Source of the DNA: a virus
Taxonomy: Duplodnaviria > Caudoviricetes
Strand: one strand, 5' to 3'
DNA length: 64,000 nucleotides
Virus record (IMG/VR): IMGVR_UViG_3300028833_000101
Location: 40,703-104,702 of that record
This document shows, one piece after another, positions 23,397-46,834 of the stretch (positions are counted from its first letter, which is position 1; every line of letters begins with the position of its first letter). A model generated the notes under the pieces. That model was given only the letters and a program-made list of their open reading frames with translations. It had not been told where the DNA came from and searched no databases. Made by a program: the position numbers and the translations under genes.

Positions 23397-23783
23397 ATGT
23401 TAAGGTGAAAAGATATTCAAGTATATGCAGATGAGGCAATTACGCGCTTTACAAATATGTATAGAAACATTAGCCTTATTGGGGCCGGGCTTGCTCCGAA
23501 TAGCCCAGATAAGTATTTAATTTATCTTGATGATAAAAAATTAGCTGGAACCTTTAAAGTAATTATTACTGAAGAATTTTTAAATGGCCAAACACAGACA
23601 ATTGATTTAGCTGCAAAGATTCCAAGTAGTTTTCCAGAAGAGAAAAAAGTTGTATTAAGAATTGCTTATGCTATTTTAGTTGCTTGACAACGACACTTTA
23701 TTGAAGCCTATAAACAAGTTGCACCAAATAAGTATGATGTAACTTTTGCTAATGCTAAAAATTGATATGATGGTTTAAAATAA
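23397..23783 (+). CDS. LRxAY-family protein 1
   Basis: Code-4 ORF with 3 TGA; KVVLRIAYAIL. Confidence 0.7.
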
Positions 23784-23784
23784 T

Positions 23785-24126
23785 ATGGCAAGATATAGTT
23801 TACAAGATGCACGTAGATATATAGTTCAAGCTTTTATGAGACTTAATAAAGCTCGTGGCTTAAATTTAGCTTTACTTGACTTAGAATATGCAGACTTAAT
23901 GGGTTGGGATTTTATTAAAGCTCATATGTATGATAAGACAACACAAACTAAATTTGATAGTATGCTTAATGAATTTATATTTACCAGAGAAGATACTATG
24001 ACAAATTTAGATACACAAGCTAAAATACTTGGAAAAAATCTAAATGAAAGAGAAAGAATTATTTTAAGAGTTGCTTACACTATTTGAAGAGATTGGAAGG
24101 AAACTAGAAATGTTGACGTGGACTAG
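23785..24126 (+). CDS. LRxAY-family protein 2
   Basis: AFMRLNKARGLNL...IILRVAYTI(W). Confidence 0.75.
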
Positions 24127-24439
24127 CCAAGACTTAGATGATTTCTGTGAACAAGCCATTAAGCTTTTAAATAAGAAAAAACAATTACAATTAGAATTAA
24201 GAAATTGTTGGCTTTATTCAAATAGCTCTGGCAGTAATTTTCATATTATCTATCATAATAACTTTTTAGATAAAGATTTTCATTTATGTAGAAATGGTAA
24301 AATTTTGCAAGAATTATCACCAGACACCGATAGAGCAGCTGGCTTAAAAGAAGTAGATGATATTAAGTTAAAAATAGTTTTACGTATTGCATATTTTATT
24401 TATAAAGACTGTCAAAGAGAAATGAAAGAGGATAAATAA
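24110..24439 (+). CDS. LRxAY-family protein 3
   Basis: AIKLLNKKKQLQL...IVLRIAYFIY. Confidence 0.75.
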   Translation: MLTWTSQDLDDFCEQAIKLLNKKKQLQLELRNCWLYSNSSGSNFHIIYHNNFLDKDFHLCRNGKILQELSPDTDRAAGLKEVDDIKLKIVLRIAYFIYKDCQREMKEDK

Positions 24440-24966
24440 TGGCTAGAGAAGCATCATTTATGTTTAAAGACCTTGAAGAGCTTGCTCAAATTAAAGCTGG
24501 TGTTTTAAGCTACCTTCAAAGAGATATTGACAAACTATTGAAGACAAAAGACTTAGATGCTGAATTTGTAAATATTGCGACACCTGGAAAATCATGAGGA
24601 AGAACTTGATTACTCTTTAAAGTTTATTATACTAAATTCAAAGATGCAGATGACATGTTAGGAAACTATGAACATGTTTTCTTTGCTTACCCTATTCAAC
24701 AAAACTTATTTACAAGAGATCCCGATTTAATGGACATCTTAGATAGACAAGCTAACATTGCAGGCAGACAAGATAAGTTAAGCGATATTGATTTAGTTAA
24801 AGTTAGAATTCTTTATCATCTATTTTATATTATTAAATGTATTCAAGAAGACAATTTACCTGCAACTATTAAACTTCCTACTAAAAAATATATTGTTGTT
24901 GAATATGCAGATGCTGGAAATTTATTCTATGAGCTAAAAGACCATTTACCTGGAGGCTTTAATTAA
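24439..24966 (+). CDS. LRxAY-family protein 4 (divergent)
   Basis: TAATG coupling; 2 TGA; IDKLLKTKDL...VKVRILYHLFY. Confidence 0.65.
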
Positions 24967-24967
24967 A

Positions 24968-25312
24968 ATGACAATAACTGAAATTAAAGACCTGTGACCA
25001 GAATGACGAATTGAATTTGTCTGTGACTATGCTTGTGAAAAACTAAGAAATATTAAAGGTATTAATTTTGTATATCTTAGAAATGAAGGCTGACAAGAGT
25101 GAGTAGATGGGACTGAGTTCTATATACCAATTATTTTTGAGTATAAAACAAATGGTACATTCTTAAAACTTGAAATTCATCAAGATTTATTTGTAGAAGA
25201 ATTTTTAGACTTTGATAAAAAAACTGGTGCTAATAGATTACCAGACATTAGAGATAAAGTAATAGTAAGACTTGCTTGACACTTAAAAGAACGTTTTGAA
25301 GGAAGAAGCTAA
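24968..25312 (+). CDS. LRxAY-family protein 5 (missed by the ORF track; 5 TGA)
   Basis: ACEKLRNIKGINF...VIVRLA(W)HL. Confidence 0.7.
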
Positions 25313-25313
25313 T

Positions 25314-26063
25314 ATGGGATTGCAACTTGGAATAAATGAATCTTCTAATATTATTCTACAAGCTATTAAAGCAACAGGTGAAAACTTTAATAGAGATTTT
25401 CATCATGTCTATTCTACCCCTGGACATCAAGGCTTTTATACTGAAATAGATGATTTTACTTTAGAGATGAAGCTTCATACAATTTCTAAAGACTATAACA
25501 AAGATGATCATGTTTTTAATTTAAATATTCCATATGAGTATTTTAATGATGATCAACTCCCTGGTGATACTCAGCTTGGAATAAAACTTACAGATCATAC
25601 TGAAGTAAAAGCTGAAATAAGATGTATGGGTCTAATCGCAAAAACATATGAAGCTTGGATTAAAGACCATGAAGTTTTTACTATAAATGATTTAAGAAAA
25701 ATTATTAATGATGCTTTAGATAGACTAAGAAAAATTAAAAAGTTAGATTTAATGGTTCGTGGAGATAAAGGTGAATTAGCTGAAAAGTATATTCAAATCT
25801 ACTTGACAGAAAATCATATTCCAGCAACTGAAGGAAGTGCTCTTGATAGATTTTTTCCAGTTGAATTACATATCTATGACTACTATACTGATGTAGGAAA
25901 TCATATAGTTGATGGCTCAATTGGTGAAGCTAATCTTCGTGGAAAAGATAGAAAAGAAATTTGTCTACTAAGAGTTGCATATACTATTTATTCAGAGTGT
26001 ATGGGCTGGCTTCATAATAAGTGACCAAAAGTTTATAATAATTATTTAAATGGTAAATTCTAA
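25314..26063 (+). CDS. LRxAY-family protein 6 (probably two tandem domains)
   Basis: ALDRLRKIKKLDL...CLLRVAYTIY; the N-terminal half looks like a degenerate copy. Confidence 0.7.
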
Positions 26064-26374
26064 TGACTAAAAATGAAAAAGAACAAGTTGTATTAGAGGC
26101 AATTCAACTACTTATAAAAAATAAAGGCCTTAAAATAAAAGTAAATAAGATGTGAGTTGACACTGGCTATTTTAATGTTGAGCTAGAATATACTATTCAT
26201 AATATAACTAAGCTGCAAGACTTTGGTTTTGTTGCTCAATGATTTGATCCAAATTATTTTGAAATATCTTGAGTTAGAGGTTTACAGGTTCCAGCAAATG
26301 CAACTGATTATCAAAAAGTATTATTAAAACTTGCATATTATTTTTATAAATGATATAAGGAGAAGTGTCAATAA
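26063..26374 (+). CDS. LRxAY-family protein 7 (missed by the ORF track; 4 TGA)
   Basis: AIQLLIKNKGLKI...VLLKLAYYFY; TAATG coupling at both ends. Confidence 0.72.
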
Positions 26375-26712
26375 TGGATCAAGTAGAAATTGATGGAATG
26401 CTCCAAGGAGCAAAAGAGTATGATGCCGAAAAATATTTAGCAGAAGCAGCTAAATTACTTTCACGTAATAAAAAATTAAATGTTGAAATAGATGACTGTG
26501 AGTGATACGTTAGTGATATAACTAATCGACTTGTATTAAAAATTTGATATTCAGTTAATAGTCATGATGTATTGCTAAAGGTTGTTGAGTCTCTGTTTAA
26601 AGACTACCAAAGACCTGCTGATGCTGAAATTGGGATTAAACCAGGAATGGAAATGAAACACAAAATTATCCTAAGACTTGCCTATGTATTGTATAAACAC
26701 AGAGAAGACTAA
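26374..26712 (+). CDS. LRxAY-family protein 8 (missed by the ORF track; 2 TGA)
   Basis: AAKLLSRNKKLNV...IILRLAYVLY. Confidence 0.72.
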
Positions 26713-26756
26713 AAATCTTCTTTTTTTATCTTCAATAGTTGTATAATATAATAGGT

Positions 26757-27287
26757 ATGACTACAACAGAACTAATTGAAAAAGCAGTAGAAAACTTAAA
26801 TAGAGTTAAGCAATTAAACCTAAGCATAACAAGCATATTATCGCAACTTGGTAATGATAATAATTTTTCTGTATCAATATTAGATAATGAAAGCGACTGC
26901 ACATTTGATACTATTATTGATGAAAATATATCTACTCAACAACTATTGCCAGATGACCATACAAAGCTATCCCCAGATAATATTATAATGTTAAGAATAG
27001 CTAAGCATATATTTGAAGCATATAAAAAGTTTAAAAACAATGTTGTCAATGCTAGCCTAACACTAAATAATAATCCAACTATTAGTTCAGTAAAAATTGG
27101 TCAAGCTACTTATGACATAGGTGTTAATGGTAGAAGCTTAACTGCAACGTTTGATGAAGTAGATGAGTTAAAAAATAAGCTTGATAATTTACAAATTGAA
27201 AAAGATCACTTAGAACAAGAATTACAGAGCACAAAAGCAATAGTTGATTTACTGTTTCAACGATGTCAAGATAAAGGGATTTTATAA
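26757..27287 (+). CDS. LRxAY-family protein 9 with C-terminal coiled coil
   Basis: AVENLNRVKQLNL...IMLRIAKHIF. Confidence 0.72.
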   Translation: MTTTELIEKAVENLNRVKQLNLSITSILSQLGNDNNFSVSILDNESDCTFDTIIDENISTQQLLPDDHTKLSPDNIIMLRIAKHIFEAYKKFKNNVVNASLTLNNNPTISSVKIGQATYDIGVNGRSLTATFDEVDELKNKLDNLQIEKDHLEQELQSTKAIVDLLFQRCQDKGIL

Positions 27288-27291
27288 ATAA

Positions 27292-27492
27292 ATGATTGAA
27301 CCTTATATTATTTTAACTCTTTGGCTCATTAATCTTGCTGTCAGCAGTTTACTTATATTGTATTTTCAAAAAAATAAACGAAGACCAACTGACTTTTCTG
27401 GCTGGACATTTGGAATTATTATTTGGAATATATTTATTACAATACTGTGTATAGCATTGATGTCATGTTATTTTACTGGGGTGCTTGGTTAG
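27292..27492 (+). CDS. Small membrane protein with two TM helices
   Basis: Two hydrophobic stretches separated by a basic loop. Confidence 0.6.
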   Translation: MIEPYIILTLWLINLAVSSLLILYFQKNKRRPTDFSGWTFGIIIWNIFITILCIALMSCYFTGVLG

Positions 27493-27765
27493 AAATTTGT
27501 AAAAACTATTTACAAGTTTTTATGATATAATATAATTATAAGGTAAAGTTATATTTAGAAAAGCAACTAAAGATGAGTTCAAAAATAAACAAAGTTGACA
27601 CTTATAAAGCTGCATTGACCTTAAAATCTTATAAAGTAATTATCATTCTCCAATTAGAAAAATGGCTTAATGCCATTTTTTATTTACTAGCCAATTAAGC
27701 GATTTTTTTTGCTAAATTAATTGATAATAATTAATTGATAATATTTTATTATAGGAGGAGAGCTG

Positions 27766-28638
27766 ATGGCAACCAAAGAACAAAAGAAACATGGTTTTAC
27801 GGTTATGTATGAAAAAGATGGCTACTATTGGGGCAGCTATGACCCATGGCCATCTAAGGATGATACTAAGCTTATTAAAGTTGCTGTTTGACGTGGTTAT
27901 CAAGAGCCAGATCCAACTGGAGAAACTGAATATATTGGTATTGTAGGACCACAGGGGCCAAAGGGCGACAAAGGTGACAAAGGTGATACTGGTCCTCGAG
28001 GTCCAAAAGGGGATAAGGGCGATAAAGGTGACCAAGGTGAAATTGGCCCACAAGGTGAACAAGGCGAACCCGGAGAAAATGGCCAAGATGGTGCACAAGG
28101 TCCTAAAGGTGATACCGGTGCTAATGGTATTACTCCTCATATTGGTGATAATGGAAACTGATTTATTGGAGAAACTGATACAGGTGTTCATGCACAAGGC
28201 CCTAAGGGCGAAGATGGAGCGGGTGGTGAAGGCGGAAGCTCACTATCAAGAGAAGAAGTTATTACCATTGTAAACGAAGCGATTGAAAGTGGTGAAATTG
28301 ATCTTAAGAAAGAAGAATACATTGTAGAAGACGTAGATGAATTAGACCTCTTAAGATTGTTTAGAACTGAATATGCAATTAATATTATACCAGTAGACCC
28401 TGAACTTAATACCGATCGTATTGTGATCGAGCCTAACACTGCTTGAACTGAAGAAACAACAAAAGTGGTTATTAAACCAGCTGATGGTGTTATTGGCAGC
28501 ATCAATAGTATTATCTCTGTAGAAAATGCAGATTATGTAGTAATTGATGACCCAGAAGCCCCAGAAGGAGCTTTAGTTATAGTTTTAAATAATCCAACTG
28601 CTGATGTTAATATTTCAGTAGAAGAAAGCTTTAAATAA
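27766..28638 (+). CDS. Collagen-like (Gly-X-Y) fibre protein (missed by the ORF track)
   Basis: AGGAGGAG RBS; about 20 GXY triplets, then GITPHIGDNGN(W)FIGETDTG with Trp as TGA. Confidence 0.85.
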
Positions 28639-28653
28639 TGGAGGAACTGAATA

Positions 28654-29781: not shown

Positions 29782-29807
29782 TGTTAATTTAATTAAAGGA
29801 GAGAAAA

Positions 29808-30728: not shown

Positions 30729-30756
30729 AGCATAAAATAATTGGAGGTAGCTAAAT

Positions 30757-31269: not shown

Positions 31270-31273
31270 TATT

Positions 31274-33805
31274 ATGGCCAGTAGTAAATATAATATAGCT
31301 ACATTATTTCATGATATTGCAGATAGTATTAGAGATAAGCTTGAGTACCCAAAAGAAGCTTATACTATAAAACCAAAAGAGTTTGCAGATGAAATTTTAA
31401 ATTTACCTCAAACTATTACTGGTGGTGCGACATATGCTGACCCTGCATTATTAGTAGAGGGAACTATTACAGACATAACTAATGATGCTGCATATATTAA
31501 ACCTTATACTTTTGCTTATTGTTCAAATCTTACTAGTGCTGAATTTCCAAAATGTTCAAAAATTGGCTCTAATACTTTTTTACAGGCTGTTAATTTAAAT
31601 TCTATCAGTTTTCCAGTTGTTGAACAAATTGAGCCTTGGGCATTTAGTAGCTGTGCTGGTTTAGTTACAGTTAGTTTTCCAGAATGTATTAGAATTAATA
31701 CAGGAGCATTTTGTAATTGCTCCTCTTTGCAATCTGTTACTTTGAGTAAATGCTCTTATATTGGTGATCGTGCTTTTTATAGTAATAATGAGTTAATAAG
31801 CTTAAATTTAGAACAGGTTGAATATATTGGGCCTTCAGCTTTTCAATATTGTACTAAACTTTCTAATATTTCACTGCCAAATGTCACTTCTATTGGAATG
31901 TATGCTTTTAATGGAACCGCTACTGATAGTCTATTTAGAAACTTATCACTATCAAAATGTAGAAGAATTGAAAGTTATGCATTTGCAAATGGCTTTGATA
32001 CTATTTCATTACCAGAGTGTACTTATATTGGTTCACAAAATTATGGAGGCGGGTCAAACTATACCTATAGTTTAAGCTACTTAGAACTTCCAAAAGCTCG
32101 TATGTTAGATAGAGTTTTTTGTAACTACTGGAATTTACAGGCGGTTAGTTTACCAGAAGTAACTATATTAGCGGCAACGTTTTCAAACTGTCGTTATTTA
32201 AGCAATGTATATGCACCAAAAGTTACTTCAATTTACTCTGATACTTTTAACAGCTGCTATTCATTGTCATCCGCTGTGTTTTCTAAAGTTACGTATCTAG
32301 GCAGTGAAGCTTTTGCTAATTGTTCAAATCTTAGTACAATATCTTTTGGTAAATTAACTACCATTTGTTCATTTGCTTTTTATGGTTGCTCCAAATTAAC
32401 AGATATAAATTGTGGCTATGGGACAAATGTATTACCAGTAACTACAATTTCAGATGGAGCATTTAATCGTTGCTCTATGTTGCCAAGCATAACATTTTTA
32501 TATTGCAGTAATTTTAGTTCTGTAAATATTTTTAGTGACTGCTCTAATTTAACAACGTTAATCTTTTTACCAAGTAGTGCTACTTTTTCTAGTAAATTTA
32601 ATCTGCCAGCAATACAAAGTATTTATGTTAGGTCAAGTTATATTAGTGTATGAAAAAATACTAAAAATTTATCTCATTACTCTAACATTATTCAATCTTT
32701 GCCAGCAGATATTGAATCATTATATACATTTGAGAAAGAATTTTATAGTTCAAATATATCTGAAATACCATTATCAAAAATAAATACTAAATATATATTA
32801 AGTAGTGCTTTTTGGCGTTGCCAAAATTTAAGCACTGCTTTATTGCCAGAGGCAGTAATTATAGATGGCTCTGCATTTTATTCATGTAAAAATTTAGTTG
32901 AAGTCTCATTACCAAATGCTATTAAATTAGGCAATTATTGCTTTTACTCTGATAATAAAATTTCAAATATCTATTTACCAAACTTAATATCAGCTGGTGC
33001 TTATTGTTTTACCTCTTGTACTGCATTTTCAAAGATGAGCTGTATTGACTTACCAAATGTTATTGAACTTGGTGCACAATGTTTCGCATGACTTAACATA
33101 TCTAAAATTTTTGTTCCTAAATTACAAACTGCCGGTCCGGGATGTTTTTCTGTTAATAGATGACTACAAACTATAGATTTACCAAATTGTACAACACTTG
33201 GTGAAAGTTGTTTCTGAGCATGTGAACAATTAAGTAGTATAAATATTCCATTAATAACAAGTATTCCAAAAGGAGCTTTTTATGCTTGTTATAGTTTATC
33301 TGCTATTCCTAATAACTCTACACTTACTGCTATTGGTTCAGACGCTTTTGCAAACTGTCATAATTTACAAGGTGATATATTTTTGCCAAAAGCTAGTATT
33401 ATTGGTTCAAACGCTTTTTATGGACTTATGAATTCAAATATAAATAAAATAATTTTAGGAAATGTAAGTATAGGAACAAATGCCTTTACATCAATTTATA
33501 ATCTCTCTGCTGTGCATCTTGCTGGTGGTACTATTAGTTGTTATGCATTTAGAAGCTGTAGAACAATACCAAGTATTTATTTTTATAGTTCTAAGTTAAT
33601 TTCTATGGAATTAGCAAATCGATCCCCAGTAGTCCTATTTGGTGGTACTGATATTGGAACGATATATGTAAGACAATCATTGTTTAATAATTATTTAAAA
33701 GATTCAAATTGAAAATATTATTCAAGTCATTTTAGTAGTCTTACAGATGAAGAAATGAATATATTATATCAAGAAAATTATGGATTACCCTATAATCAAG
33801 ATTAA
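31274..33805 (+). CDS. BspA/TpLRR (LRR_5) leucine-rich repeat protein 1 (about 843 aa)
   Basis: Repeats of IGxxAFxxCxxLxxxxLP; IYVR...YLKDSN(W)KYY cap; three ORFs joined through TGA. Confidence 0.85.
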
Positions 33806-33820
33806 TTTGGAGGCAACTAA

Positions 33821-36703
33821 ATGGCAAATTCTGTAAATACTACTTTAAAAAACATAGCAGATGCAATTAGATATAAATTAGAAACTGATGAACTAATTTC
33901 ACCAATAGATTTTCCAAGTAAAATTTCTGAAATTCCTGTTGCAGTAGGTGGTTTTGATGACCCAACACCTATTATTACTGGAACTGTTAGGCTTGTTAGT
34001 AATAGTGCTTCATTTATTCGTGCTTATGCTTTTTATGATTGTTCACAGTTAGCAGCTGTAAGTTTTCCAAATTGCACAAGTATTAATAATGGGGTATTTG
34101 CTAATTGTAGTGCTTTAAAAACAGTTAATTTTGCTACCTGTACTTCTATTGGAAGTAGCGCATTTTATCAATGTTCAAATTTATCAACATTTTCTTTTCC
34201 GAACTGTGAATATATTGGTAATAGTGCTTTTTATAATTGTTCAAAGCTATCTAATATAGATTTACCAAATTGTAGCTTTATTGGAAATAACGCTTTTACT
34301 AATTGCTATAATATTTCAAGTATTAATTTACCTAATGTTAAAGTTTTAGGGGGAGCAGCATTTTGTGCTTGTAGAAATATTACTGGGCCGGTAAGTTTAC
34401 CTGTTATTAGTAGCTTATATGATAGTGTATTTTATGACTGTAGAAATATTACCTCAGTCTATCTACCAGAACTAACATCTTTATATGGCAGTGTATTTGA
34501 AAACTGTTCACAATTATCTAGTTTTTATTTACCAAAGATAAAGACTATTTATGGCAACGCTTTTTATAATACTGCCTTGACAGGAAGTATTGAGTTATCT
34601 ACGCTTGAAGGGATTGGTAGTTCGGTTTTTGGCAAAACATCTATAACTAATTTTAGTGCTCAAAATTGCTCTCGAATAGAAAATGGTAATTCGCCATTCC
34701 CATCCAGTATTTTAAGTATTTATATGCCAAACTTAACTAAGATTTATGGATGTGGATTTCAAAATTGCTCCAATTTACAAACCTTAGACATTCCATACTC
34801 GAAAATTGATTATATTAATGCATATGCTTTTGCAAATACTCCATTTTCAACCCTTACATTAACTGGCATTTCCAGTATTTTATATGGAACATTTATAGAT
34901 TGTTCAAATTTAGTTAGTATCTATGTGCCATATGCAGTTAATATTGATGCATGATCTGGCTATTCTCAAGCAGGCATTTTTGCAAATTGTTATAATTTAA
35001 CAACCATAAATAATCCACAAAATATTGTTAACTTTAGAGACATTAAATGGGATACTTTTAAAAACTGCAGCGCATTAACACATATTACACTGACTGAGGC
35101 AAGTAAGATCTATACTGGAGCATTCGCTGGGTGTAAAAATTTACATACACTAATTTTATTAGGTGATTCCCTTTTTAATAGCTATCCAGCAAATGCTTTT
35201 ACAGATACTCCAATCTTAACTTCCAGTTATTTAGGTACTTATGGAAGCATCTATGTACCAGCAGTATATTTAAGTTCTTATAAAGCTAACTGACCGGAAG
35301 TTTCAGAGAGAATCGTAGCGCTAGATTCGTCAGATTATATTGCACCATTTGAATTTGCAGAATCAAATATTTCAGAAATTCCACTCTCTAAATTAAATGC
35401 TTATTATATAGGAAAAAATGCATTTGTCTCATGTAATAACTTAGAGTCAGTAACATTATCTAATTGTTTAGCTATGGCTGTAGATGCTTTTGAGTACTGT
35501 TCACAATTAGTATCTGTAAATTTACCAAATTGCTTAACTATCAATAAAAATTATACTGACATGAATTGCTTTTCTGGTTGTGAGAATCTTAAAATAATAA
35601 ATCTTCCTAAAGTAAAAAGACTTGATAATACAAATTTTCCAAGTAGTCTTGAAAGTATTAATTTAGCAAATTGCTCAGATATTACTGGCTATGATACTTT
35701 TTCTGGTTGTAATATTAGTATGATAGATCTTCCAGAATGCGTGAACGTAGGCCCTGCTACTTTTTCTGGTTGTAGCTTATTAACTTCAGCAAATTTACCA
35801 AAAGTTAAGTACATTTCTAACAATTGCTTTATAAGCTGCACTAATTTAACAGAAGTCACTATTGGACCTGCTACAAGTGTTATTGGTTATTGTGCATTTC
35901 AAGGATGCACAAATCTAAGTAGCTTTAATTTTTCTCAAATACAAGTCATAGAAGGAAGTGCTTTTGCGGATTGTTCAAATTTAAGTGGCACCTTACATTT
36001 AGAAAATGTTTCATCATTTGGACTATATGCTTTTAGAAATTGTCAAAATATCTCAAGTGTTATCTTATCTTTTGATAAAATAACTACTTTTGGTCAAGGT
36101 GTATTTAATGGTTGCTCCAATATAATGTCAAGTTTTATAGGTGGAAACTATATATGTGACTCTCTCGGAAATCCAGTTTGGTATCAAGGACCATACTCTA
36201 CAGATATAACAACTTTAGCTTTTCCAAATACTTATAGACTTGGAATATTTGGTAATCAACTTGGTAATTGTTGGAGTATTCAAACTATTGTTTTTCCATC
36301 TACAATAACAAGTATTCCTGCCGAATTTTATTGCAGTAGAACTATTCAACTAGATAACCATCAATACCCATTAAATACTGTTTATATTTTAGGAAATCCG
36401 TTCATTGGTAATGATGCCTTTATGTATAAAACACACTTAAGTTCTGTTTATATCCTTGGCAGTGAAATGGCTTCATTTGGCGGTAGAGGTTGAGGCGACT
36501 ATACTTTAATTAATGGTTGAAGTGGCTGGGGTTCACGATCTGCATCTGGTAAAATTTATGTAAGAGCATCATTAGCTGATGCTTATAGAAATCAAGTTGC
36601 AAGCTTATCAAGTTTAAAAAATGCGACAATTGAAGGATTATCTGATGAGGAAATAGATAATTTATTAATAGAATTAAATCAAACTTATCCTAATGTTATA
36701 TAA
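33821..36703 (+). CDS. BspA/TpLRR (LRR_5) leucine-rich repeat protein 2 (about 960 aa)
   Basis: Same repeats; N-terminal IADAIRYKL shared with protein 1; joined through TGA. Confidence 0.85.
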
Positions 36704-36753
36704 TAATTTTTATTGTATAATATAAATATAAAAGAAGAAAAGGAATTTTTAAT

Positions 36754-37731: not shown

Positions 37732-37777
37732 TTAATAAAAATTATAAAAAGACAACTTAAAAAGTTGTTTTTTTTTA

Positions 37778-37806
37778 TTTACAAACTTCTTATTTAGTTG
37801 TATAAT
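37778..37806 (+). promoter_or_regulatory. SigmaA-type early promoter TTTAC(A/T)-N17-TATAAT (one of about 28 in the window)
   Basis: Others near 27509, 38331, 39501, 40078, 41195, 42012, 45644, 47859, 50487, 51347, 52152, 52426, 52848, 53614, 54221, 55305, 56010, 56691, 57279, 58077, 60812, 61316, 61856, 62396, 62753, 63608, 63915. Confidence 0.9.
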
Positions 37807-37825
37807 ATAAATAAAGGATTAAAAT

Positions 37826-38299
37826 ATGAACATTTATATTGCTGCAAGCTTTGCATATGAAGATAAAGCTAAAACCAGTCAAAAGAAAGACTTAATTGAA
37901 AAAACTGTCAAGAGAATTAAGAAGTTTTTAAAAGGCAATTATTACTTACCACATCAATTAAAAATTCCAAATGCTTGGGATATGAGTTTAGAAGAATGGT
38001 CAAAAGCTGTTTATGAGCATGACATGGAAGTACTAGAAAAAGCAGAAGTTGTAATTTTTCTAAGCTTTGGTAAAGAGAACAATGCCGGGTCGGCTTGGGA
38101 AATGGGGTATGTTCATGGGTTTAATCTACATGAACAAGTTCACTTTCAAAAAACAGTTATAGTAATAAAGATGACTGATGAGCCAGAAAGTCTTATGATT
38201 AGTAATTCAGTAGATAGAATTATTATGAGTAATGAAATTGAAACTTATGACTGGAAGACATTTCCAAAATATAAAACAGTTTTAAACAAACTAAGTTAA
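37826..38299 (+). CDS. Nucleoside 2-deoxyribosyltransferase/nucleotide N-hydrolase family
   Basis: IYIAASF...D...AEVVIF...GSAWEMGY motifs. Confidence 0.8.
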   Translation: MNIYIAASFAYEDKAKTSQKKDLIEKTVKRIKKFLKGNYYLPHQLKIPNAWDMSLEEWSKAVYEHDMEVLEKAEVVIFLSFGKENNAGSAWEMGYVHGFNLHEQVHFQKTVIVIKMTDEPESLMISNSVDRIIMSNEIETYDWKTFPKYKTVLNKLS

Positions 38300-38378
38300 G
38301 ATAATTAAATAAAGAAACTTGTAAAAACTATTTACAAGTTTCTTTTTTTGTGGTATAATATAAATGTGAGGTAAAAGT

Positions 38379-38816
38379 ATGGAAACTATTGTTAGAGAAA
38401 AAACAACTTATGGATTTGTTTTATTTGATAAATATATTTTATGTGATATTAAAACATATCCAGCAAATGATGTCAATTTTAGACGCTTAGATGAAATTGA
38501 TAAGAAAAAAGCTAAAATCAGACAATACAATAGTTTAAAAGTTTTAAGAAAAGAAGTACCTGGACATTTACAACAATGGCGTTATTGGTTACCTAAACAT
38601 AAAGAAAGTGAATGGCTTAAAGATAAAGTTGAACCTTGGTGGGACGAAATTTATACTTTAGAATCATTACTAAAAGAAGCTGGCTTTGGTGAAGCCGGTT
38701 TTGGTGGAATTGGTGCTTTAAGCAGCTGGCATGATACTGGCGCTTGGGAGTATTGTATTAAGCACAAGTATTTTAAAATTATTAAGATTAAAGAAAGATT
38801 AATTTTTGAAGAATAA
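38379..38816 (+). CDS. Early hypothetical protein (paralogue of 39121)
   Basis: DKYILC...IRQYNSLKVL; own promoter; all Trp codons are TGG. Confidence 0.75.
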   Translation: METIVREKTTYGFVLFDKYILCDIKTYPANDVNFRRLDEIDKKKAKIRQYNSLKVLRKEVPGHLQQWRYWLPKHKESEWLKDKVEPWWDEIYTLESLLKEAGFGEAGFGGIGALSSWHDTGAWEYCIKHKYFKIIKIKERLIFEE

Positions 38817-38853
38817 GTATTTACAGACAAAAATATTTAGAAAGTAGATTAAT

Positions 38854-39117
38854 ATGAAAATTGAAATAGAAGTTAAATTTAATATTGATGATAAGGTGTT
38901 AGTTAAAAAGCCGCATAGTGGAAGCTATCAAAAACCAGAACCATTTATTGCAGTAATTGGTGGCTATACAATTACTAAAAATAAAAGATCAACTACAGTT
39001 AGATATACCCTGGAGCCACTTATTAATGATGGTTATTATCATTTTAATGCTGGTATCTCTGACTGGAACCGTAAAAAGAAATATAGTGTCAATGAATTAG
39101 AAAAAATTGAGGAATAA
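38854..39117 (+). CDS. Early hypothetical protein (KFNIxDxV, SH3-like)
   Basis: ORF track; IEVKFNIDDKV N-terminus. Confidence 0.65.
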   Translation: MKIEIEVKFNIDDKVLVKKPHSGSYQKPEPFIAVIGGYTITKNKRSTTVRYTLEPLINDGYYHFNAGISDWNRKKKYSVNELEKIEE

Positions 39118-39120
39118 ATT

Positions 39121-39492
39121 ATGAAACATTTGCATAGAGAAGTTATTGGCTATACTGTTATCATTTTAGATAAATATATTTTATGTGGAACTGCTAATAA
39201 TTTACAATGGAAAGATTTAGAAAATTTAGGAAGAGTTAATATTAGGCACTATAAAAGTTTAAAAATTTTACTAAATAATTTATGGTATCATATGACTGAT
39301 TATGGTAGCAACAATTTTAAGTCTATACTAGATGCTGAGTTATCTAAAGCAGGATATTTAAGATACACAGGCTATTATGAAGTTACAGATTATCGTAAAA
39401 AAGAAGCACTTAATTATCTTATTGATGCCGGCTTACTTAAAGTTGTAGAATTACAAGAAAGTATTGACATTGAAAAAGAAGTTAAATTTTAA
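39121..39492 (+). CDS. Early hypothetical protein (paralogue of 38379)
   Basis: DKYILC...IRHYKSLKIL. Confidence 0.7.
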   Translation: MKHLHREVIGYTVIILDKYILCGTANNLQWKDLENLGRVNIRHYKSLKILLNNLWYHMTDYGSNNFKSILDAELSKAGYLRYTGYYEVTDYRKKEALNYLIDAGLLKVVELQESIDIEKEVKF

Positions 39493-39550
39493 TAAAGCTA
39501 TTTACAAATAAAGTAGTTTATGTTATAATAATAATGCGAGGTAAATTAAA

Positions 39551-40069
39551 ATGGAAATTAAACAAATTGATTGGTCAAGAATTAAACCTAGAATTGGCAG
39601 ATGGGTAAGAACAGAAGCCCATGCTGGTCAAGTTAAATACGATTTAGAATCAGACTTAGCTGACCCTTATACTATTACACAATTTACAGTTGACTTTGAA
39701 GATGAAACTGTTTCTACTGGCTGGAGAGAAGAACTTAGTGGACATCAAGAAGAAGTACCATTAACTCCAGAAGAAAACTACGAAGCCAGACAAATGATTT
39801 CTGATTGCAGAATTATTACTGTTAGCTTTACTATTAGACCAGGGTATGAAGACCTCGCTAAAAGACAATCTGAATATATGCTTGATGGCTATGATCTTAT
39901 TAAAGTTACTATGCAGGGCAATACTATTACATTTGAAGGCAATCATCTAAACTTAAGTGATGCTGTAGCTGATGGTCATATTTCAGAATGGGCTAATGAA
40001 GACCCTGAAGTAGAGATTGATGTTGCCTGTGGTATTGATAGAGCTAACGCAGGAAACTGGGATTATTAA
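39551..40069 (+). CDS. Early hypothetical protein
   Basis: Promoter plus GAGGT RBS. Confidence 0.75.
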   Translation: MEIKQIDWSRIKPRIGRWVRTEAHAGQVKYDLESDLADPYTITQFTVDFEDETVSTGWREELSGHQEEVPLTPEENYEARQMISDCRIITVSFTIRPGYEDLAKRQSEYMLDGYDLIKVTMQGNTITFEGNHLNLSDAVADGHISEWANEDPEVEIDVACGIDRANAGNWDY

Positions 40070-40134
40070 AAAAACTATTTACAAATAAAAATATTTGTGA
40101 TATAATATATTTAGAAAGTTGAAGTAAATAAAAT

Positions 40135-40353
40135 ATGAAAAAAATTATTATTGTTTTGGCGAATGACTGCCTTCAAAGAGTCTACTCTGATGAAAAGGTC
40201 GAAATAGAAGTCATTGATCTTGGAGATGTAGATGAAGAGCACCCAACAAGAGTTCAAAAGAAGCAGCTTAAACAACTAGAAAAATTAGAAGAAGACGCTA
40301 GTTTAACTACCAAGTGTTGGTTCTATGATAACAAACCACTTTCTTATAAATAA
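40135..40353 (+). CDS. Early hypothetical protein
   Basis: Promoter; resembles the small ORF at 54605. Confidence 0.65.
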   Translation: MKKIIIVLANDCLQRVYSDEKVEIEVIDLGDVDEEHPTRVQKKQLKQLEKLEEDASLTTKCWFYDNKPLSYK

Positions 40354-40368
40354 CGCGAGGAAATAATT

Positions 40369-41034
40369 ATGGAAAAAGAATATCAAAAAATTGGAAATGT
40401 ATTTAAGTTCGACGAAAAGTTTAGAACTATTGTTGGGCTTAATGAACCATATGAAACATTAAAGAATATTATCTGGCAAGGTACTGAAAAGATTGACGGA
40501 ACTAATATTCGTGTTCATTGGGATGGTCATGACATTGAGTTCGCTGGCCACACTGATAAAGCACAAATCCCACCAAAGCTTCAAGCTTATTTAGAGTCCG
40601 TGTTCAAAGTCCCAGAAATGGAATATATTTTTGAACAAGTCTTTGGTGAACCTGAAGCGTATATCTTTGGTGAAGGTTTTGGTGCTGGAATTCAAAAGTC
40701 TGGCGGAGACTATGTAGAAAACGGAACCGATGTTTCTTTCATTGTCTTTGATGTTCAAATCGATGGTTGGGACCTTGATAGAAAGAACACTACTGATGTT
40801 GCTACTAAACTTGGTTTACCTTCTGTCCCTGTCTGCTTTGAAGGAACTCTTGATGAAGCTAAAGCTTATGTTGCTGAACATCACATGTCTACACTTAATG
40901 GTGGCAAGCATGAAATGGAAGGCTTGGTCTTAGTGCCTCGTGATATTCAACTCTATGACAAGAAACACCATCTTATTAAGTGCAAGTGCAAATACAGAGA
41001 CATGGTTAGAGCTGGTCTTGTAGAGGAAAAATAG
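40369..41034 (+). CDS. RNA ligase (Rnl2-like adenylyltransferase domain)
   Basis: TEKIDGTN (motif I), IFGE, FIVFD, EGLV and C-terminal KxK motifs. Confidence 0.85.
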   Translation: MEKEYQKIGNVFKFDEKFRTIVGLNEPYETLKNIIWQGTEKIDGTNIRVHWDGHDIEFAGHTDKAQIPPKLQAYLESVFKVPEMEYIFEQVFGEPEAYIFGEGFGAGIQKSGGDYVENGTDVSFIVFDVQIDGWDLDRKNTTDVATKLGLPSVPVCFEGTLDEAKAYVAEHHMSTLNGGKHEMEGLVLVPRDIQLYDKKHHLIKCKCKYRDMVRAGLVEEK

Positions 41035-41036
41035 CT

Positions 41037-41165
41037 ATGATAGTTGGAATTATTGCAACTATACTTTTGTTTCTCTTAATTTCTGGTTGTATTATTATTG
41101 GCTTTGCCGATGCTTGTGGAGAAGCAGCTGGTGAAGAAAGTATTTATTCTGGTGGCAAAGAATAA
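41037..41165 (+). CDS. Small membrane peptide
   Basis: GAGG RBS; hydrophobic 42-aa ORF. Confidence 0.5.
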   Translation: MIVGIIATILLFLLISGCIIIGFADACGEAAGEESIYSGGKE

Positions 41166-41245
41166 AAAACTTTAAGAAATTTGTAAAAAAGTATTTACAA
41201 GTTTCTTTTTTTATGTTATAATAATTATAGAAAGTTGGTAAGCTT

Positions 41246-42001: not shown

Positions 42002-42060
42002 TTAATAATTGTTTACAAATATAATTTTATATGAGATAATATTAATGTGAGGTAAAAAAT

Positions 42061-42321
42061 ATGACTGTAAAAGAATACTTAGAAGTTCATAGTAGTAAAG
42101 ATATTGAATCAATCGGTATTTATTCAGCTACTAAAATTAAGGATGCTTGTGATAGAGATACTGATGTTATTGATACTGATGTTCAACCTGTTGATTTAGT
42201 TAAATATTTAGAAAGAGAAGTTGACCATGTTAGCTTAGGTATCTTTGATGAAACAAGAAAAGCTATTGATGGAACAGACTACAATGCCAAGTTCATTAGA
42301 GCTTGTATTTATGTGAGGTAA
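42061..42321 (+). CDS. Early hypothetical protein
   Basis: Promoter plus GAGGT RBS. Confidence 0.7.
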   Translation: MTVKEYLEVHSSKDIESIGIYSATKIKDACDRDTDVIDTDVQPVDLVKYLEREVDHVSLGIFDETRKAIDGTDYNAKFIRACIYVR

Positions 42322-42326
42322 TAATT

Positions 42327-42815
42327 ATGTTTCCAGATTTATTAGATGCTCTTAGTGAATATAGTAGTTATTATACTAGTGATGTTGATCCAGAAGTTGA
42401 AGATGCTTTTAAAAGTATTCTTAAAAAAGTTTGGCATGAACACGCCACGAAATATATAGATAATACTGGAGATATTACTGGAGAAGCTCGTTCAATCTTA
42501 GAAAAAGCTTTACAATTACTTCACAAAAATAAAAACATTCATCTCAGATTCGATTTGAACTCTGAGAAGTGTAAAATGTATCAAATACAAGACCCAAGAA
42601 AGTTAAGCCCACAAACAATTTTACAATTAGAAGTAAAAGAAGGCTTAGATAAACAGTATATCAAAGCTACTATTAGTAATGAAGCTTTCACCGCTAATTG
42701 GTTACCAACTGATGACTATGCTGGTATTTCAAAAAGAATTAAAGATTTAGATACCATAACTTATCGTGGTATTAGACTTGCTTATATTATTTATCAAGCA
42801 ATTAAAGATAATTAG
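42327..42815 (+). CDS. LRxAY-family protein 10
   Basis: ALQLLHKNKNIHL...RGIRLAYIIY. Confidence 0.72.
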   Translation: MFPDLLDALSEYSSYYTSDVDPEVEDAFKSILKKVWHEHATKYIDNTGDITGEARSILEKALQLLHKNKNIHLRFDLNSEKCKMYQIQDPRKLSPQTILQLEVKEGLDKQYIKATISNEAFTANWLPTDDYAGISKRIKDLDTITYRGIRLAYIIYQAIKDN

Positions 42816-42825
42816 GAGTATGAAT

Positions 42826-43158
42826 ATGTATAAAGTAAAATGTATCGCTGATGGAATGATTGTCTGGAAGGGCACTACTGTCATAGGAATTAAAGGTTTG
42901 ACTTTGCCTGAGATGTTTAATGAATGTGATTGTGTAAAACTTCCAGGAAACGCTTTCGATTATTCACTTTCACCCTCTAATAAATATACAGAAGAACAAC
43001 TTGCTTTTATTAATAAAGCAGAAGCTGAGTGGGCTGAAGATGGTGGTGAAGAAATCGATCATGAGCCTGAGTATGGAATTAAGTATGGCGAAGATGATGA
43101 CGTCCCACTAATGGATTTATTTGGCCAAAGCATTCCAGACGATGACTTGCCGTTTTAG
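42826..43158 (+). CDS. Hypothetical protein with SSB-like acidic DDDLPF tail
   Basis: AGGAG RBS; ends IPDDDLPF. Confidence 0.65.
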   Translation: MYKVKCIADGMIVWKGTTVIGIKGLTLPEMFNECDCVKLPGNAFDYSLSPSNKYTEEQLAFINKAEAEWAEDGGEEIDHEPEYGIKYGEDDDVPLMDLFGQSIPDDDLPF

Positions 43159-43175
43159 CTTCAAAAGGTGAGAGA

Positions 43176-43403
43176 ATGAAAATAACAACTAATGAACAAC
43201 CTTTAATCATAGACTTAGAAAAAAATGAAACATTAACTATATCAAGTACAATAGTAATGATAAAGCATGTTTTTGATTTATCTTTGTACAAAACCGTCAG
43301 ACTAAAAGTTTACAATAATATATTTATAGTTGAAGCTGAGAACAAAAATAATGGCAGTAAATTAATCAGGGCTTTTTCTGATACTTGGGGGTTTTCTATT
43401 TAA
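43176..43403 (+). CDS. Hypothetical protein
   Basis: AAGGTGAG RBS. Confidence 0.55.
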   Translation: MKITTNEQPLIIDLEKNETLTISSTIVMIKHVFDLSLYKTVRLKVYNNIFIVEAENKNNGSKLIRAFSDTWGFSI

Positions 43404-43603
43404 TGAAAAATAAAGAAATAGTAAAAGCATTAAAGGGAAGTTGGAAAGACAAACCAGTAGAAGTTCTCGTTAAAATTGAGGGCGGACTATACTATCCAAT
43501 TAAAGAAATAGTCAAAAACAAGGATGGTACTTTTACTATTATAGGCAGAAACTTAACTGAGCATTCCGTCATAGGGCCTGCCAAATGGTATAAGAATAAA
43601 TAG
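43403..43603 (+). CDS. Hypothetical protein
   Basis: TAATG coupling to the upstream gene. Confidence 0.6.
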   Translation: MKNKEIVKALKGSWKDKPVEVLVKIEGGLYYPIKEIVKNKDGTFTIIGRNLTEHSVIGPAKWYKNK

Positions 43604-43787
43604 AGCTTCTGCCAAAATACACTCATAGTAGGACAAAAAGTTTAAGACTTCTGTCAAAAGCAGAAGTTTTTTATTTCTTTGTTTGTAAATCTTTGTCACT
43701 TTTGTCACTCAAATGTCACTCAAATAAAAGACTTGACAAAAAGTTGAAATTCAATTTTTTGGCAAATAATTTGCTAAATTATACAGA

Positions 43788-44216
43788 ATGAACAAAGATT
43801 ACAACCAAGAAAGATTTGACTTATTAGAAACTTTGAAGACAGATGTTGCCAGAATGATCAGACTTAAAGACCTGCCGGCAACCTGCCATTCTTTAACTGC
43901 AATTAGTGGAAGAGATGGTAGAACGGAGCTAGTATTGGAACTATTCGTCGACATATTAAATACAGAGAAAATCGCCCGAGTTTACTTATACATTACAGAG
44001 GACATTTTTGACCCAGATGGCTTTGAGTTTATAAATAGTGACATAGGTCTTGGAAATAAAAAAGTAGACACAAAAACCTTCATTAAACTTAGAGCCCTCA
44101 GAACAGTATACAATGTAATAAAAAACGTAAGCACTGGATATGCAAATGCAGTCGACCCAAATAAAATAATATATGTCAGAACACAAAAAACAGGTGTCTG
44201 TGATTATAGGAATTAA
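43788..44216 (+). CDS. LRxAY-family protein 11 (divergent)
   Basis: VARMIRLKDL...FIKLRALRTVY; directly after GCTAAATTA. Confidence 0.65.
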   Translation: MNKDYNQERFDLLETLKTDVARMIRLKDLPATCHSLTAISGRDGRTELVLELFVDILNTEKIARVYLYITEDIFDPDGFEFINSDIGLGNKKVDTKTFIKLRALRTVYNVIKNVSTGYANAVDPNKIIYVRTQKTGVCDYRN

Positions 44217-44220
44217 TAGT

Positions 44221-44601
44221 ATGAGTTACCCATATAGACCACAAAAAGAATGAGACATAATAAATATAGTCAAGAAAGCAATCAGGACCTTAAATAAGAA
44301 AAAAGGGACTACTTTAAAGATGGCCAATATTAGCTTTGGTCAAGGTGTGGACAGCAAGTATGGTTCAGGACAATTAGATACCACAATAAGTTTAGTAGTG
44401 CAGGAAACAATAAGTAAAAGAATAATGAAGCTATTCTGATATGAAAGCTTCTTTAATCCTGACTTGCCTGATGATAAAGACGAAGTTTCAGGAGTAAATA
44501 AAGTAAGTAATCCAGGAGACAAAGTATTGCTTAGAGTTGCTTACTGCATTTGGTTTGGCAGACACTGGATGTCAGCGCCACAAAAGAAAAATAAAAAATA
44601 A
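44221..44601 (+). CDS. LRxAY-family protein 12 (missed by the ORF track; 2 TGA)
   Basis: AIRTLNKKKGTTL...KVLLRVAYCIW. Confidence 0.72.
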
Positions 44602-44611
44602 TGGTGATAAT

Positions 44612-44977
44612 ATGGAAATAAATAGTAAATATTCTACACTTATTACTTCAGCTTGTGAAAGGGTACAAAGAGTTAAAGGAATTAATGTTTTTCTTTCTAG
44701 TATAGAATTTTATGGTGTTCATAAATACTCGCATGACAATGTATATAAGATAAATCTTATAACCGATAATGGACTCCTTACTATCTATCAAGAAGAAGAA
44801 AACTTTAAGTATTGGGCTGATGTCCCATGGTCTGGCTTGGAAGAGTTTAGACCAGCAGACTTTGATAGCTGATCAGAATATAAGAAGTTAATGCTTGCTT
44901 GGTGCTGGGCAATTTATAAATACTGTAAAGACTGGGGAGACTACCAAAATACAACGCCACCACCAATTGAAGAATAA
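44612..44977 (+). CDS. LRxAY-family protein 13 (divergent; 1 TGA)
   Basis: ACERVQRVKGINV...KLMLAWCWAIY. Confidence 0.65.
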
Positions 44978-45197
44978 ATTAAAAGGTATCTTAGAGATAT
45001 CTTTTTTATAACTCTTAAAAAATAATCTGCTAAATTATACTGAGAAAAAGCTAAGGCAATTGCTATTGGCTTCTTTTTTAATAATTTAATAAAAAACATT
45101 TGCTATAATTAATTGAAGGTTGTTAAAAAGGCCGAAATAGGTTTTTGGTCAAATATCCTTCTTTTTTTATACTCTTTTGCGCCGTATAATATAATGT

Positions 45198-45623
45198 ATG
45201 AATTTTAATATTATAGACCAAGCAATAAAATTAGTAAGAGATAAATTCAAGATAGATTTTACAGTCAGCCAGTATACAATACAGACGGACCCAGAAGACA
45301 TAACAATTGGCGGAGTTGCCCATCACATCTATAGAGAGCCAGAGCTTAGGATGAGTATCACTGTAGTAAAAGGTCGTAATTCTTGGACCAGCTATACAGA
45401 CTTAGATTATGTGATATTCGGAAGCGACCTACGAGATGGAAGCTTGATAGATGAAATCATCGGTGGAAATATCAAAGGTTATGAATTAGACATGAGACAA
45501 GCTCTGAGACTCGCCTTCATCATATATAATGGAATCCAGTATGGCGTAAGCGGAGAGATGAAAAAAGATTATATAGACAAAGGCTGGCATCCAAGAGTAG
45601 TAAGTTCAAGAATGAGGTATTAA
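45198..45623 (+). CDS. LRxAY-family protein 14
   Basis: AIKLVRDKFKIDF...QALRLAFIIY. Confidence 0.7.
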   Translation: MNFNIIDQAIKLVRDKFKIDFTVSQYTIQTDPEDITIGGVAHHIYREPELRMSITVVKGRNSWTSYTDLDYVIFGSDLRDGSLIDEIIGGNIKGYELDMRQALRLAFIIYNGIQYGVSGEMKKDYIDKGWHPRVVSSRMRY

Positions 45624-45679
45624 AAAATATCTCATTTTTTTATTTACTTTTAAAGGCAACTATGGTATAATATAAATGT

Positions 45680-46834
45680 ATGAGTAAGATTATCGGAACT
45701 TGTTTAGGAGAATATGTAAAAGAGGGAGATGTTTTATATGACCCTCAAACAGATACATATAAGATAAAGGCCGGAGATAGACTAGTGGAAATTGATGGCC
45801 ACGTTTTGCAATCTGAAAGTCTAAGAACTTTACAGGAAGCCTTAAGCAATGTAGACGACGAAAACATTAAGATAGATATGTTAGGTAGTTGGGCTAAAGA
45901 CCTCGACGCAAAATATAGAAGAACTTACTTAGGCGACTGGGGACCGGACAGAACAGATGAAGCTAAGACAGCAGTAGAGGCAGCGGCTGAGGCAGAAGCA
46001 GAGGCGAGAGCGAAAGCAAGGTTCGCAGAGGCGAGAGCGAGGATGTCAGAAGCGAAAGCAATGAGTAGCAAAACAGCGGCTGCGGCAGGTCCTGCAGGAG
46101 CGCCTTTTGACAGTCAGAGCTTCGACCCCTTGCGTGCGCGCGTTGAAGCCGAAACAGACTCTGGAGCCTGGAAGATAGATGGCCTCGGAGCCCGCATCAG
46201 ACCAGTGGACACCGGAGACTGGAACGTCCGCTTCACCGATAAAGCCGCTGAGAAGCTTAGGGAGAACAGCGTCTACGGTAGTGGCGTCGGAACGGCAAGC
46301 CACACCTCCGCGCCCTGGGACGATCCTCTAAAGGACCAGATAGACAAAGCTAGTAATACTGTAGCTTGCTGCGACTTACCTGAACTAAAGCCTGACTATA
46401 ATCCTAATGATAAGGTGAAAGTATATTACCATGATAGATTTCCTTCTATACCTATTCGTTCTATAATAGATGACGCGATTGAATTACTAAATAATAAGAA
46501 AAATTTACATATATCTAAAATTTCTTTACACAATGAAAAATTCAGCGACAAAGACTATAGACTTGCGATATCCTCTAGAATTCCCGAAAGACCAGGATAT
46601 ATAAAGACTTTAGAAGTAGCAATTAATCATACGGCGTTCGACAGAGCCTACAAGACAGAGCTGGACGGATATGCCAAACTTAAAGCCAGACTTGATACAA
46701 ATACTTATATTAAACTTAGAATTGCTTTCTTACTATACCAGGCCTTGAAGCTGCGAGATGAAGACGCCAGAAAGATAAGCTTGGACATCTTTAGAATTAT
46801 AGGCAGCGATACAAGACCAGGATTTCACTTTTAA
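45680..46834 (+). CDS. LRxAY-family protein 15 with long N-terminal extension
   Basis: AIELLNNKKNLHI...YIKLRIAFLLY; Ala/Glu/Arg-rich middle region. Confidence 0.72.
   Translation: MSKIIGTCLGEYVKEGDVLYDPQTDTYKIKAGDRLVEIDGHVLQSESLRTLQEALSNVDDENIKIDMLGSWAKDLDAKYRRTYLGDWGPDRTDEAKTAVEAAAEAEAEARAKARFAEARARMSEAKAMSSKTAAAAGPAGAPFDSQSFDPLRARVEAETDSGAWKIDGLGARIRPVDTGDWNVRFTDKAAEKLRENSVYGSGVGTASHTSAPWDDPLKDQIDKASNTVACCDLPELKPDYNPNDKVKVYYHDRFPSIPIRSIIDDAIELLNNKKNLHISKISLHNEKFSDKDYRLAISSRIPERPGYIKTLEVAINHTAFDRAYKTELDGYAKLKARLDTNTYIKLRIAFLLYQALKLRDEDARKISLDIFRIIGSDTRPGFHF

Follow-up and report, generated by a model that had tools for sequence, protein, structure and literature searches.

What would a phage do with 15 versions of one small gene? 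The question is raised by a 64,000-nucleotide stretch of tailed-phage DNA (the window), which covers bases 40703-104702 of the single virus record IMGVR_UViG_3300028833_000101 (G000; 104,702 bp; completeness 46% by CheckV). A preliminary description of the window had pointed to about 15 genes, in two arrays, that share a domain. We find that 15 genes of this phage carry 16 domains of one family, each domain approximately 105 residues long, and we offer, tentatively, the reading that they encode a repertoire of small binding modules. Positions below are those of the window unless they are labeled as genome positions.

Fifteen Genes, One Domain Family

When the open reading frames (ORFs) of the + strand are compared all-versus-all by BLASTP, several members already match one another (E 3e-7 to 8e-3). 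A hidden Markov model (HMM) seeded with four members and iterated converges in two rounds on 14 + strand ORFs, followed by a wide gap; the next ORFs lie at E > 0.01. Does this similarity hold when each member is withheld? Profiles made from the other 13 members recover all 14 (E 2.4e-18 to 7.4e-4). In 13 of these 14 leave-one-out tests the top-scoring nonmember is the same ORF, 45198-45623. A wider profile built without this ORF (alignment A2) recovers it at E 3.4e-5, and it is the probable 15th family gene. As judged by profile similarity, which is significant for the 14 and extends to this ORF, the 15 genes are one genuine domain family, and the number of paralogs given in the preliminary description is borne out by the HMM, the leave-one-out tests and the independent profile. 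Pairwise identities among members are low (15-28%), and the member alignment has no invariant column. Two further candidates, 18423-18767 and 53669-54184, were rejected as members (E 0.13 or worse), and profile searches found no further copies in the rest of the 104.7-kb record, including its first 40 kb.

The helix motif strings quoted in the preliminary description are all present, at the places it gave, in translations that read TGA as Trp. Its nine tandem genes at 23397-27287 stand as described. The six genes at 42327-46834 are there as well, but they are not strictly tandem, with three unrelated small ORFs between 42327-42815 and 43788. It had also suspected that one gene has two domains, and for 25314-26063 the HMM, hhalign and AlphaFold all agree: the family profile recognizes the N-terminal halves of this protein and its orthologs with E-values as low as 8e-8, hhalign assigns the N-terminal domain a probability of 92.9%, and the AlphaFold model (predicted local distance difference test, pLDDT, 89.6; predicted template modeling score, pTM, 0.77) consists of two tandem alpha-beta3-alpha units. 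The 15 genes therefore hold 16 domains. For six genes we place the start at a better position (24110, 25314, 26757, 42327, 44221 and 44612), because the resulting lengths agree with those of the orthologs; with these starts the 15 genes take up 7,119 bp, or 6.8% of the record. Shine-Dalgarno-like sequences precede internal array genes.

The genetic code deserves comment. The + strand carries all long ORFs, and in-frame TGA is frequent among them (18 in the 1521-codon ORF 2524-7089). Nine of the 15 family genes contain TGA codons. In the family alignment TGA sits in columns where other members have Tyr, Phe or Trp, e.g., at the "AYxI[Y/W]" position, and all 15 genes end in TAA or TAG; TGA is therefore read as Trp (table 4), which, on the evidence of these alignments, is the right reading for this phage. 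ARAGORN finds no tRNA genes in the 104,702-bp record, hence no suppressor is seen there. A suppressor may lie in the missing part of the genome, or the host itself may read TGA as Trp.

Predicted Fold and Conserved Residues

AlphaFold gives a confident model for the product of 24110-24439 (pLDDT 91.6, pTM 0.84). It has a helix at residues 6-23, strands at 28-38, 41-50 and 55-62, two short helices at 63-77 and a last helix at 85-108, with an insert of approximately 20 residues between strand 3 and the last helix. As modeled, the fold is a two-layer sandwich in which the N-terminal helix and the long C-terminal helix pack against the same side of an antiparallel sheet of three strands. Three domains were modeled, and their folds are confident and mutually consistent. 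The expectation of conserved N- and C-terminal helices around a divergent, beta-like middle agrees both with the model and with per-site entropy (family-wide, 2.4-2.7 bits in the helices versus 3.0-3.5 in the strands). Within one orthologous group, strand 3 and the insert are the most variable parts.

Which residues are held constant? In alignments of 60 and 90 sequences A16, L20, D74, L91, R92, A94 and Y95, and also M1, are invariant or nearly so, and therefore no catalytic-type motif is conserved. Conserved helix residues follow an i/i+3/i+4 spacing, which places them on the packed faces of both helices. In the model A16, L20, L91, A94 and Y95, together with R92 and D74, look like a packed core; A16 and A94 would sit at the helix crossing, and a probable D74-R92 bridge would fix the insert. 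The preliminary description had spoken of a "conserved docking scaffold." The model does not support this wording: the conserved helix residues read as core and not as an exposed docking face, so that what is conserved is the scaffold itself rather than a demonstrated docking site. The members have no hydrophobic segments, and their isoelectric points (pI) span 4.8-9.8, most being neutral or acidic. Basic residues are conserved after helix 1, in an Asn-Lys-x-Lys turn.

Comparison with Known Families and Structures

We searched for relatives of the domain in sequence and structure libraries. No Pfam family recurs (at most two of 90 members match any one family), nor does any PHROG (at most one of 90, and no structural PHROG) or any NCBIfam or PADLOC family (at most one of 15 each). 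The one PHROG matched, phrog_32543 (unknown function), is hit by a single member at E 3e-4 to 9e-4. A sequence-profile search of the PDB has a best E-value of 0.39 and returns no double-stranded RNA-binding domain (dsRBD). Foldseek finds nothing at E 1e-3 or better in the PDB and BFVD. VIA-align against 48,161 chains reaches best Z-scores of 5.7 and 5.5, under the usual background of this tool (typical best Z of 7-8 for unmatched models), and a search of the ESM Atlas returns only unnamed viral clusters, at 0.77-0.80. Among the libraries searched the domain thus matches no catalogued family or solved structure and is apparently undescribed, just as the first inspection of the sequence had suggested.

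Two partial resemblances are worth describing. The dsRBD (Pfam: dsrm, PF00035) has the same alpha-beta-beta-beta-alpha order with both helices on one face of the sheet. However, a dsRBD has approximately 70 residues, whereas the present domain has approximately 105, with strands of 8-11 residues, a 20-residue insert and a last helix of 24 residues, and the charge of the family is not uniformly basic. None of the 90 members matches dsrm or another RNA-binding Pfam family at E ≤ 0.1. The dsRBD rows in Foldseek are weak (E 0.11-0.31, template modeling score 0.26-0.30, in the noise range), no dsRBD is among the 50 VIA-align rows shown, and the RNA-contact motifs of dsRBDs (the His-containing beta1-beta2 loop and the Lys-rich start of helix 2; GPxH and KKxAK types) are absent from the family consensus. 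As far as the model goes, the likeness is one of topology only. The ribosome hibernation factors HPF/YfiA/RaiA appear in VIA-align at Z 4.5-5.3 (81-85 residues, root-mean-square deviation 4.0-4.7), again in the noise range. The HPF/YfiA fold is beta-alpha-beta3-alpha; its first strand is absent from the family model, and there is no Pfam match.

Distribution and Evolution

Is the family confined to this phage? Among 1.84 billion representative proteins, 155 metagenomic clusters match at E ≤ 1e-3 and 17 at E ≤ 1e-10. For all but three of the 155, the best match is one particular paralog of the window (27-100% identity), and the paralogs are therefore old, each with its own orthologs. A word-indexed search returns 290 clusters, all named only "hypothetical protein." GTDB genomes scanned with paralog 2 (23785-24126) contain no relative, and megablast of the region against GenBank phages gives no match and thus no close relative there.

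The search of IMG/VR gave only two relatives. One of them, G001 (99.8 kb), has 13 family matches; an ENA contig (L005; 167.7 kb, of which 20 kb were read) has 11 family ORFs, two of which are pieces of one gene, and an ENA scaffold (L007; 167.7 kb, 20 kb read) has 12. The comparison of copy number that the preliminary description had proposed thus gives counts of 11-13 or more for the parts of these relatives that were read. The order of the copies is conserved among the relatives, while single copies are gained or lost. The gene at 24968 is missing from G001 and L005, and the gene at 26063 from L007, in spite of neighbors that are 93-100% identical, so that the copies appear individually dispensable and accessory-like.

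In comparison with G001, the ratio of nonsynonymous to synonymous substitution rates (dN/dS, Nei-Gojobori) is 0.02-0.37 in 13 of 14 family pairs, similar to that of flanking genes, which indicates that each paralog is kept by purifying selection. The remaining pair, that of 23397, has a dN/dS of 0.60 and is poorly aligned. Family genes are 72-98% identical between G000 and G001, whereas the adjacent tail-fiber genes are 53-56% identical over partial alignments. The family is conserved while the fibers diverge, and therefore does not covary with them; on this ground we reject a role as a fiber-specific chaperone.

Promoter-Like Motifs and Genomic Position

The arrays lie at a junction of late and early genes, and next to them are genes for an RNA ligase and a nucleoside deoxyribosyltransferase. 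Three kinds of motif occur upstream of family genes. A sigma-70-like element, TTTACA-N16-18-TATAAT, has 21 sites on the + strand (0.3 expected). All but one fall within 37.8-41.2 kb and 47.9-63.9 kb (37778-41222 and 47859-63943), regions whose genes lack TGA, and most have TG before the -10 element (extended -10). By their sequence these sites look like an early promoter class for host sigma-70.

The motif (T)GCTAAATTATA has 12 sites in the genome with at most one mismatch, eight of them intergenic and before structural genes. A pair at 23289-23381 (+ strand) lies upstream of array 1. The motif precedes the family genes at 23397 and 43788 and also the structural genes at 18850 and at genome positions 6163 and 33189. 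Its conserved form, TATTTGCTAAATTATA, is found at genome positions 6057, 13140, 22611, 33116 and 35498 and at 8037, 18808, 23289, 23371, 43773 and 45029 of the window. It precedes structural genes and two family units and probably represents a middle or late promoter specific to the phage. The third motif, GTATAATATAA, has 25 sites (6.3 expected; 7084, 18409, 26741, 45184, 45665 and others in the window), often 5-9 nucleotides before ATG, a spacing that suggests leaderless transcripts for some genes. It lies directly upstream of the family genes at 26757, 45198 and 45680.

How are the copies distributed over these classes? Twelve of the 15 belong to units that have at their head the late-type motif also found before virion genes, and three, all TGA-free, are among early genes behind sigma-70-like or leaderless-type sites. 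The earlier statement that copies sit behind all three promoter classes fits the motif positions, promoter activity itself being presumed.

The Individual Paralogs

All 15 genes are on the + strand; E-values in this section are from the leave-one-out tests unless noted. Array 1 opens with paralog 1 (23397-23783; 128 amino acids, three in-frame TGA; E 1.3e-7), which starts 15 nucleotides downstream of the GCTAAATTATA motif at 23371 and has a 94% identical ortholog in L007. Paralog 2 (23785-24126; 113 amino acids; E 7e-14) has one TGA, at an aromatic (Tyr/Phe/Trp) column, and orthologs that are 98-100% identical (dN/dS 0.02). Paralog 3 (24110-24439; 109 amino acids, no TGA; E 2.4e-18) is the protein whose model is described above, and it has more than 80 orthologous clusters. 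Paralog 4 (24439-24966; 175 amino acids, two TGA; E 2.2e-8; dN/dS 0.14) has approximately 35 further amino acids on the C-terminal side of its domain. Paralog 5 (24968-25312; 114 amino acids, five TGA; E 1.3e-12) is the one missing from G001 and L005. Paralog 6 (25314-26063; 249 amino acids, one TGA) is the tandem pair, its N-terminal copy degenerate, and it is followed by paralog 7 (26063-26374; 103 amino acids, four TGA; E 6.6e-7), the one missing from L007. Paralog 8 (26365-26712; 115 amino acids, two TGA; E 1.7e-14) has a GTG start after AAGGAG. Paralog 9 (26757-27287; 176 amino acids, no TGA; E 1.5e-11) has its own TATAAT element nine nucleotides upstream (motif at 26741), and the tail that follows its domain is coiled-coil-like, with weak leucine-zipper hits at residues 136-167.

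The second group begins with paralog 10 (42327-42815; 162 amino acids, no TGA; E 5.9e-10), which closes a unit headed by the sigma-70-like site at 41194. Paralog 11 (43788-44216; 142 amino acids, no TGA; E 8.4e-5) starts four nucleotides downstream of the GCTAAATTATA motif at 43773. Paralog 12 (44221-44601; 126 amino acids, two TGA; E 1.7e-11) has a pI of 9.8, and paralog 13 (44612-44977; 121 amino acids, one TGA; E 7.4e-4, or 2e-12 with the wider profile) is one of the most divergent members. Paralog 14 (45198-45623; 141 amino acids, no TGA), the probable 15th member, has TATAAT seven nucleotides before its ATG and is the best match of five metagenomic clusters.

The longest member is paralog 15 (45680-46834; 384 amino acids, no TGA; E 1.2e-13). 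In an alignment of 25 homologs it has a long N-terminal region, the domain at residues 243-363 (approximately) and a conserved C-terminal tail. Within this gene, positions 45900-46300 are an Ala/Glu/Arg-rich stretch of low complexity that lifts the local GC content to approximately 0.40 and gives rise to long spurious ORFs on the other strand. The subfamily of paralog 15 varies widely in the length of its N-terminal regions (proteins of 128-506 amino acids), and no Pfam domain is above threshold in those of the long fused homologs. One candidate homolog, P0146 (708 amino acids, immunoglobulin-like repeats), is probably a false hit.

Neighboring Genes

The record encodes a terminase, a portal and a major head protein, tail fibers with an S74 chaperone domain, two BspA-type leucine-rich repeat (LRR) proteins, an SNF2 helicase, an RNA ligase, a nucleoside deoxyribosyltransferase and a GT2 glycosyltransferase. 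Array 1 is immediately preceded by a gene for a 158-amino-acid protein (22464-22940; 82% identity in G001) whose N-terminal half is charged and coiled-coil-like. The gene has this position in the window as well as in each of the three relatives read, and its product may be functionally part of array 1. In the window the two arrays are split by a collagen-like gene (27766-28638) and the LRR pair (31274-33805 and 33821-36703), adjacent paralogs with 30% identity over 821 amino acids (E 1e-72); in the relatives L001 and L007 this block is not between the arrays. Also between the arrays, among early genes, are the nucleoside 2-deoxyribosyltransferase (37826-38299; PF05014, E 2e-9) and the RNA ligase (40369-41034; PF09414, E 2e-15; 99% identical in G001). 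A second small pair of paralogs (38364-38816 and 39121-39492) has 31% identity over 67 amino acids (E 3e-6) and no assigned function.

What Might the Family Do?

The 15 genes are genuine and look expressed, and their domains are small, soluble and lineage-specific. Conservation falls on the helix core, while variation falls on the strands, the loops and the net charge. On this basis it is tempting to hypothesize a repertoire of small, nonenzymatic binding modules with different partners, most probably host factors, that serves host takeover or counter-defense; we hold this reading tentatively and give it somewhat less than an even chance. One stable scaffold would present many differing surfaces, each paralog recognizing a separate partner, and in this way the phage would, most probably, neutralize or redirect proteins or other macromolecules of its host. 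Twelve copies would be made with the virion genes once TGA can be read, and would either work late or be carried by the particle; the other three would be early products. That the proteins bind, what they bind and when they are expressed we infer. In its boldest form the hypothesis has a previously unseen scaffold multiplied, in a clade of TGA-recoded phages, into 16 specific inhibitors or adaptors of host factors. Most of these would be produced alongside the virion and perhaps brought in by it, and counter-defense would then be ready at injection. We think this form unlikely.

Several observations weigh against such a repertoire. Two of them, the late-type motif before 12 copies and the purifying selection, also fit only loosely with the guess in the preliminary description (anti-defense proteins or host adaptors), which stays plausible. 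The dN/dS values against G001 show no gene-wide positive selection, and the orthologs are conserved rather than rapidly diversifying; purifying selection is not the usual picture for genes in an arms race. The Asn-Lys-x-Lys turn, if it is a common site, could favor one shared ligand over many. Finally, the motif of the structural genes stands ahead of 12 of the 15 copies, and nine need TGA to be read as Trp, an arrangement that suits a virion or assembly role at least as well.

Could the proteins then be parts of the virion or of its assembly, i.e., minor structural, adaptor or decoration components of the tail and fiber apparatus, or head cargo, with paralogs that may bind one another? In the window, as in each of the three relatives read, array 1 comes directly after the tail-fiber genes, and the GCTAAATTATA motif at its head is found before structural genes too. 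TGA occurs in nine copies as it does in structural genes, the genes are closely spaced and their stops and starts overlap, one of the proteins has a tail of coiled-coil-like character, another is duplicated in tandem, and the orthologs are well conserved. However, the three TGA-free copies stand among early genes at sigma-70-like or leaderless-type sites, single copies are lost in close relatives, which is unusual for structural parts, and the family does not covary with the fast-evolving fibers; moreover, the alignment shows no shared N-terminal targeting or cleavage motif, and no structural PHROG is matched. We regard a virion role as the main rival but, on balance, rather unlikely. Quite improbable, in our judgment, is a set of dsRBD-like proteins that bind nucleic acids or the ribosome and act as RNA regulators or ribosome factors in a phage that recodes TGA. 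It would account for the order of secondary-structure elements, the weak dsRBD rows in Foldseek (E 0.1-0.3), the hibernation factors that cover the whole model in VIA-align, the conserved basic residues after helix 1 and the conserved R92. But all the structural scores are inside the noise range of the tools, none of the 90 members matches an RNA-binding Pfam family, the PDB profile search is empty, and both the length of the domain and a pI range that is mostly neutral or acidic speak against it. As for the notion that unrelated, AT-rich short ORFs merely share low-complexity, helix-like strings by chance, the low pairwise identity and the lack of an invariant column would suit it, yet it is already refuted and keeps virtually no credit: leave-one-out E-values reach 2e-18, the 155 metagenomic clusters are independent, dN/dS is well below 1, three domains adopt the same confident fold, and internal genes are preceded by Shine-Dalgarno-like sequences.

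Known systems offer partial parallels to both the virion role and the repertoire of binding modules. The internal-protein (IP) locus of T4 and the paralogous head and inner-body families of phiKZ-like phages are plastic arrays of small accessory proteins. The present arrays are like them in having many small, divergent, dispensable tandem paralogs, apparently coexpressed with virion genes, with copy content that differs between relatives. They are unlike them in that three copies are apparently early. In addition, we see no T4-type N-terminal capsid-targeting sequence or protease-cleavage site in the alignment, where the N-termini are unconserved and the first helix begins at residue 6. Anti-CRISPR loci and the takeover modules of SPO1-like and Twort-like phages are clusters of unrelated proteins that are typically expressed early. 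The resemblance here is in small, soluble proteins with no enzymatic motif and with differing surfaces and charge, in a variable region that adjoins other genes of counter-defense type (the RNA ligase). In contrast to such clusters, there are 16 copies of one fold, 12 of the 15 genes are behind the late-type motif, and neither PADLOC nor another database offers a link.

Whatever its function, the domain family is real and apparently undescribed, and its expansion is unusual for a phage. Compact phage genomes rarely keep 15 paralogs of one small gene. The family occupies approximately 7% of the assembled DNA and its orthologous groups persist across the clade; each copy must therefore earn its place. 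A confidently predicted structure without a relative among the sequence libraries and solved structures searched also makes the domain a clean target for structure determination and partner screens. If the proteins are virion parts, they would be an unusual modular element of particle architecture. If they bind host factors, they would represent a new natural binding scaffold and a starting point for learning how recoded phages, which lack a cultured member, interact with their hosts.

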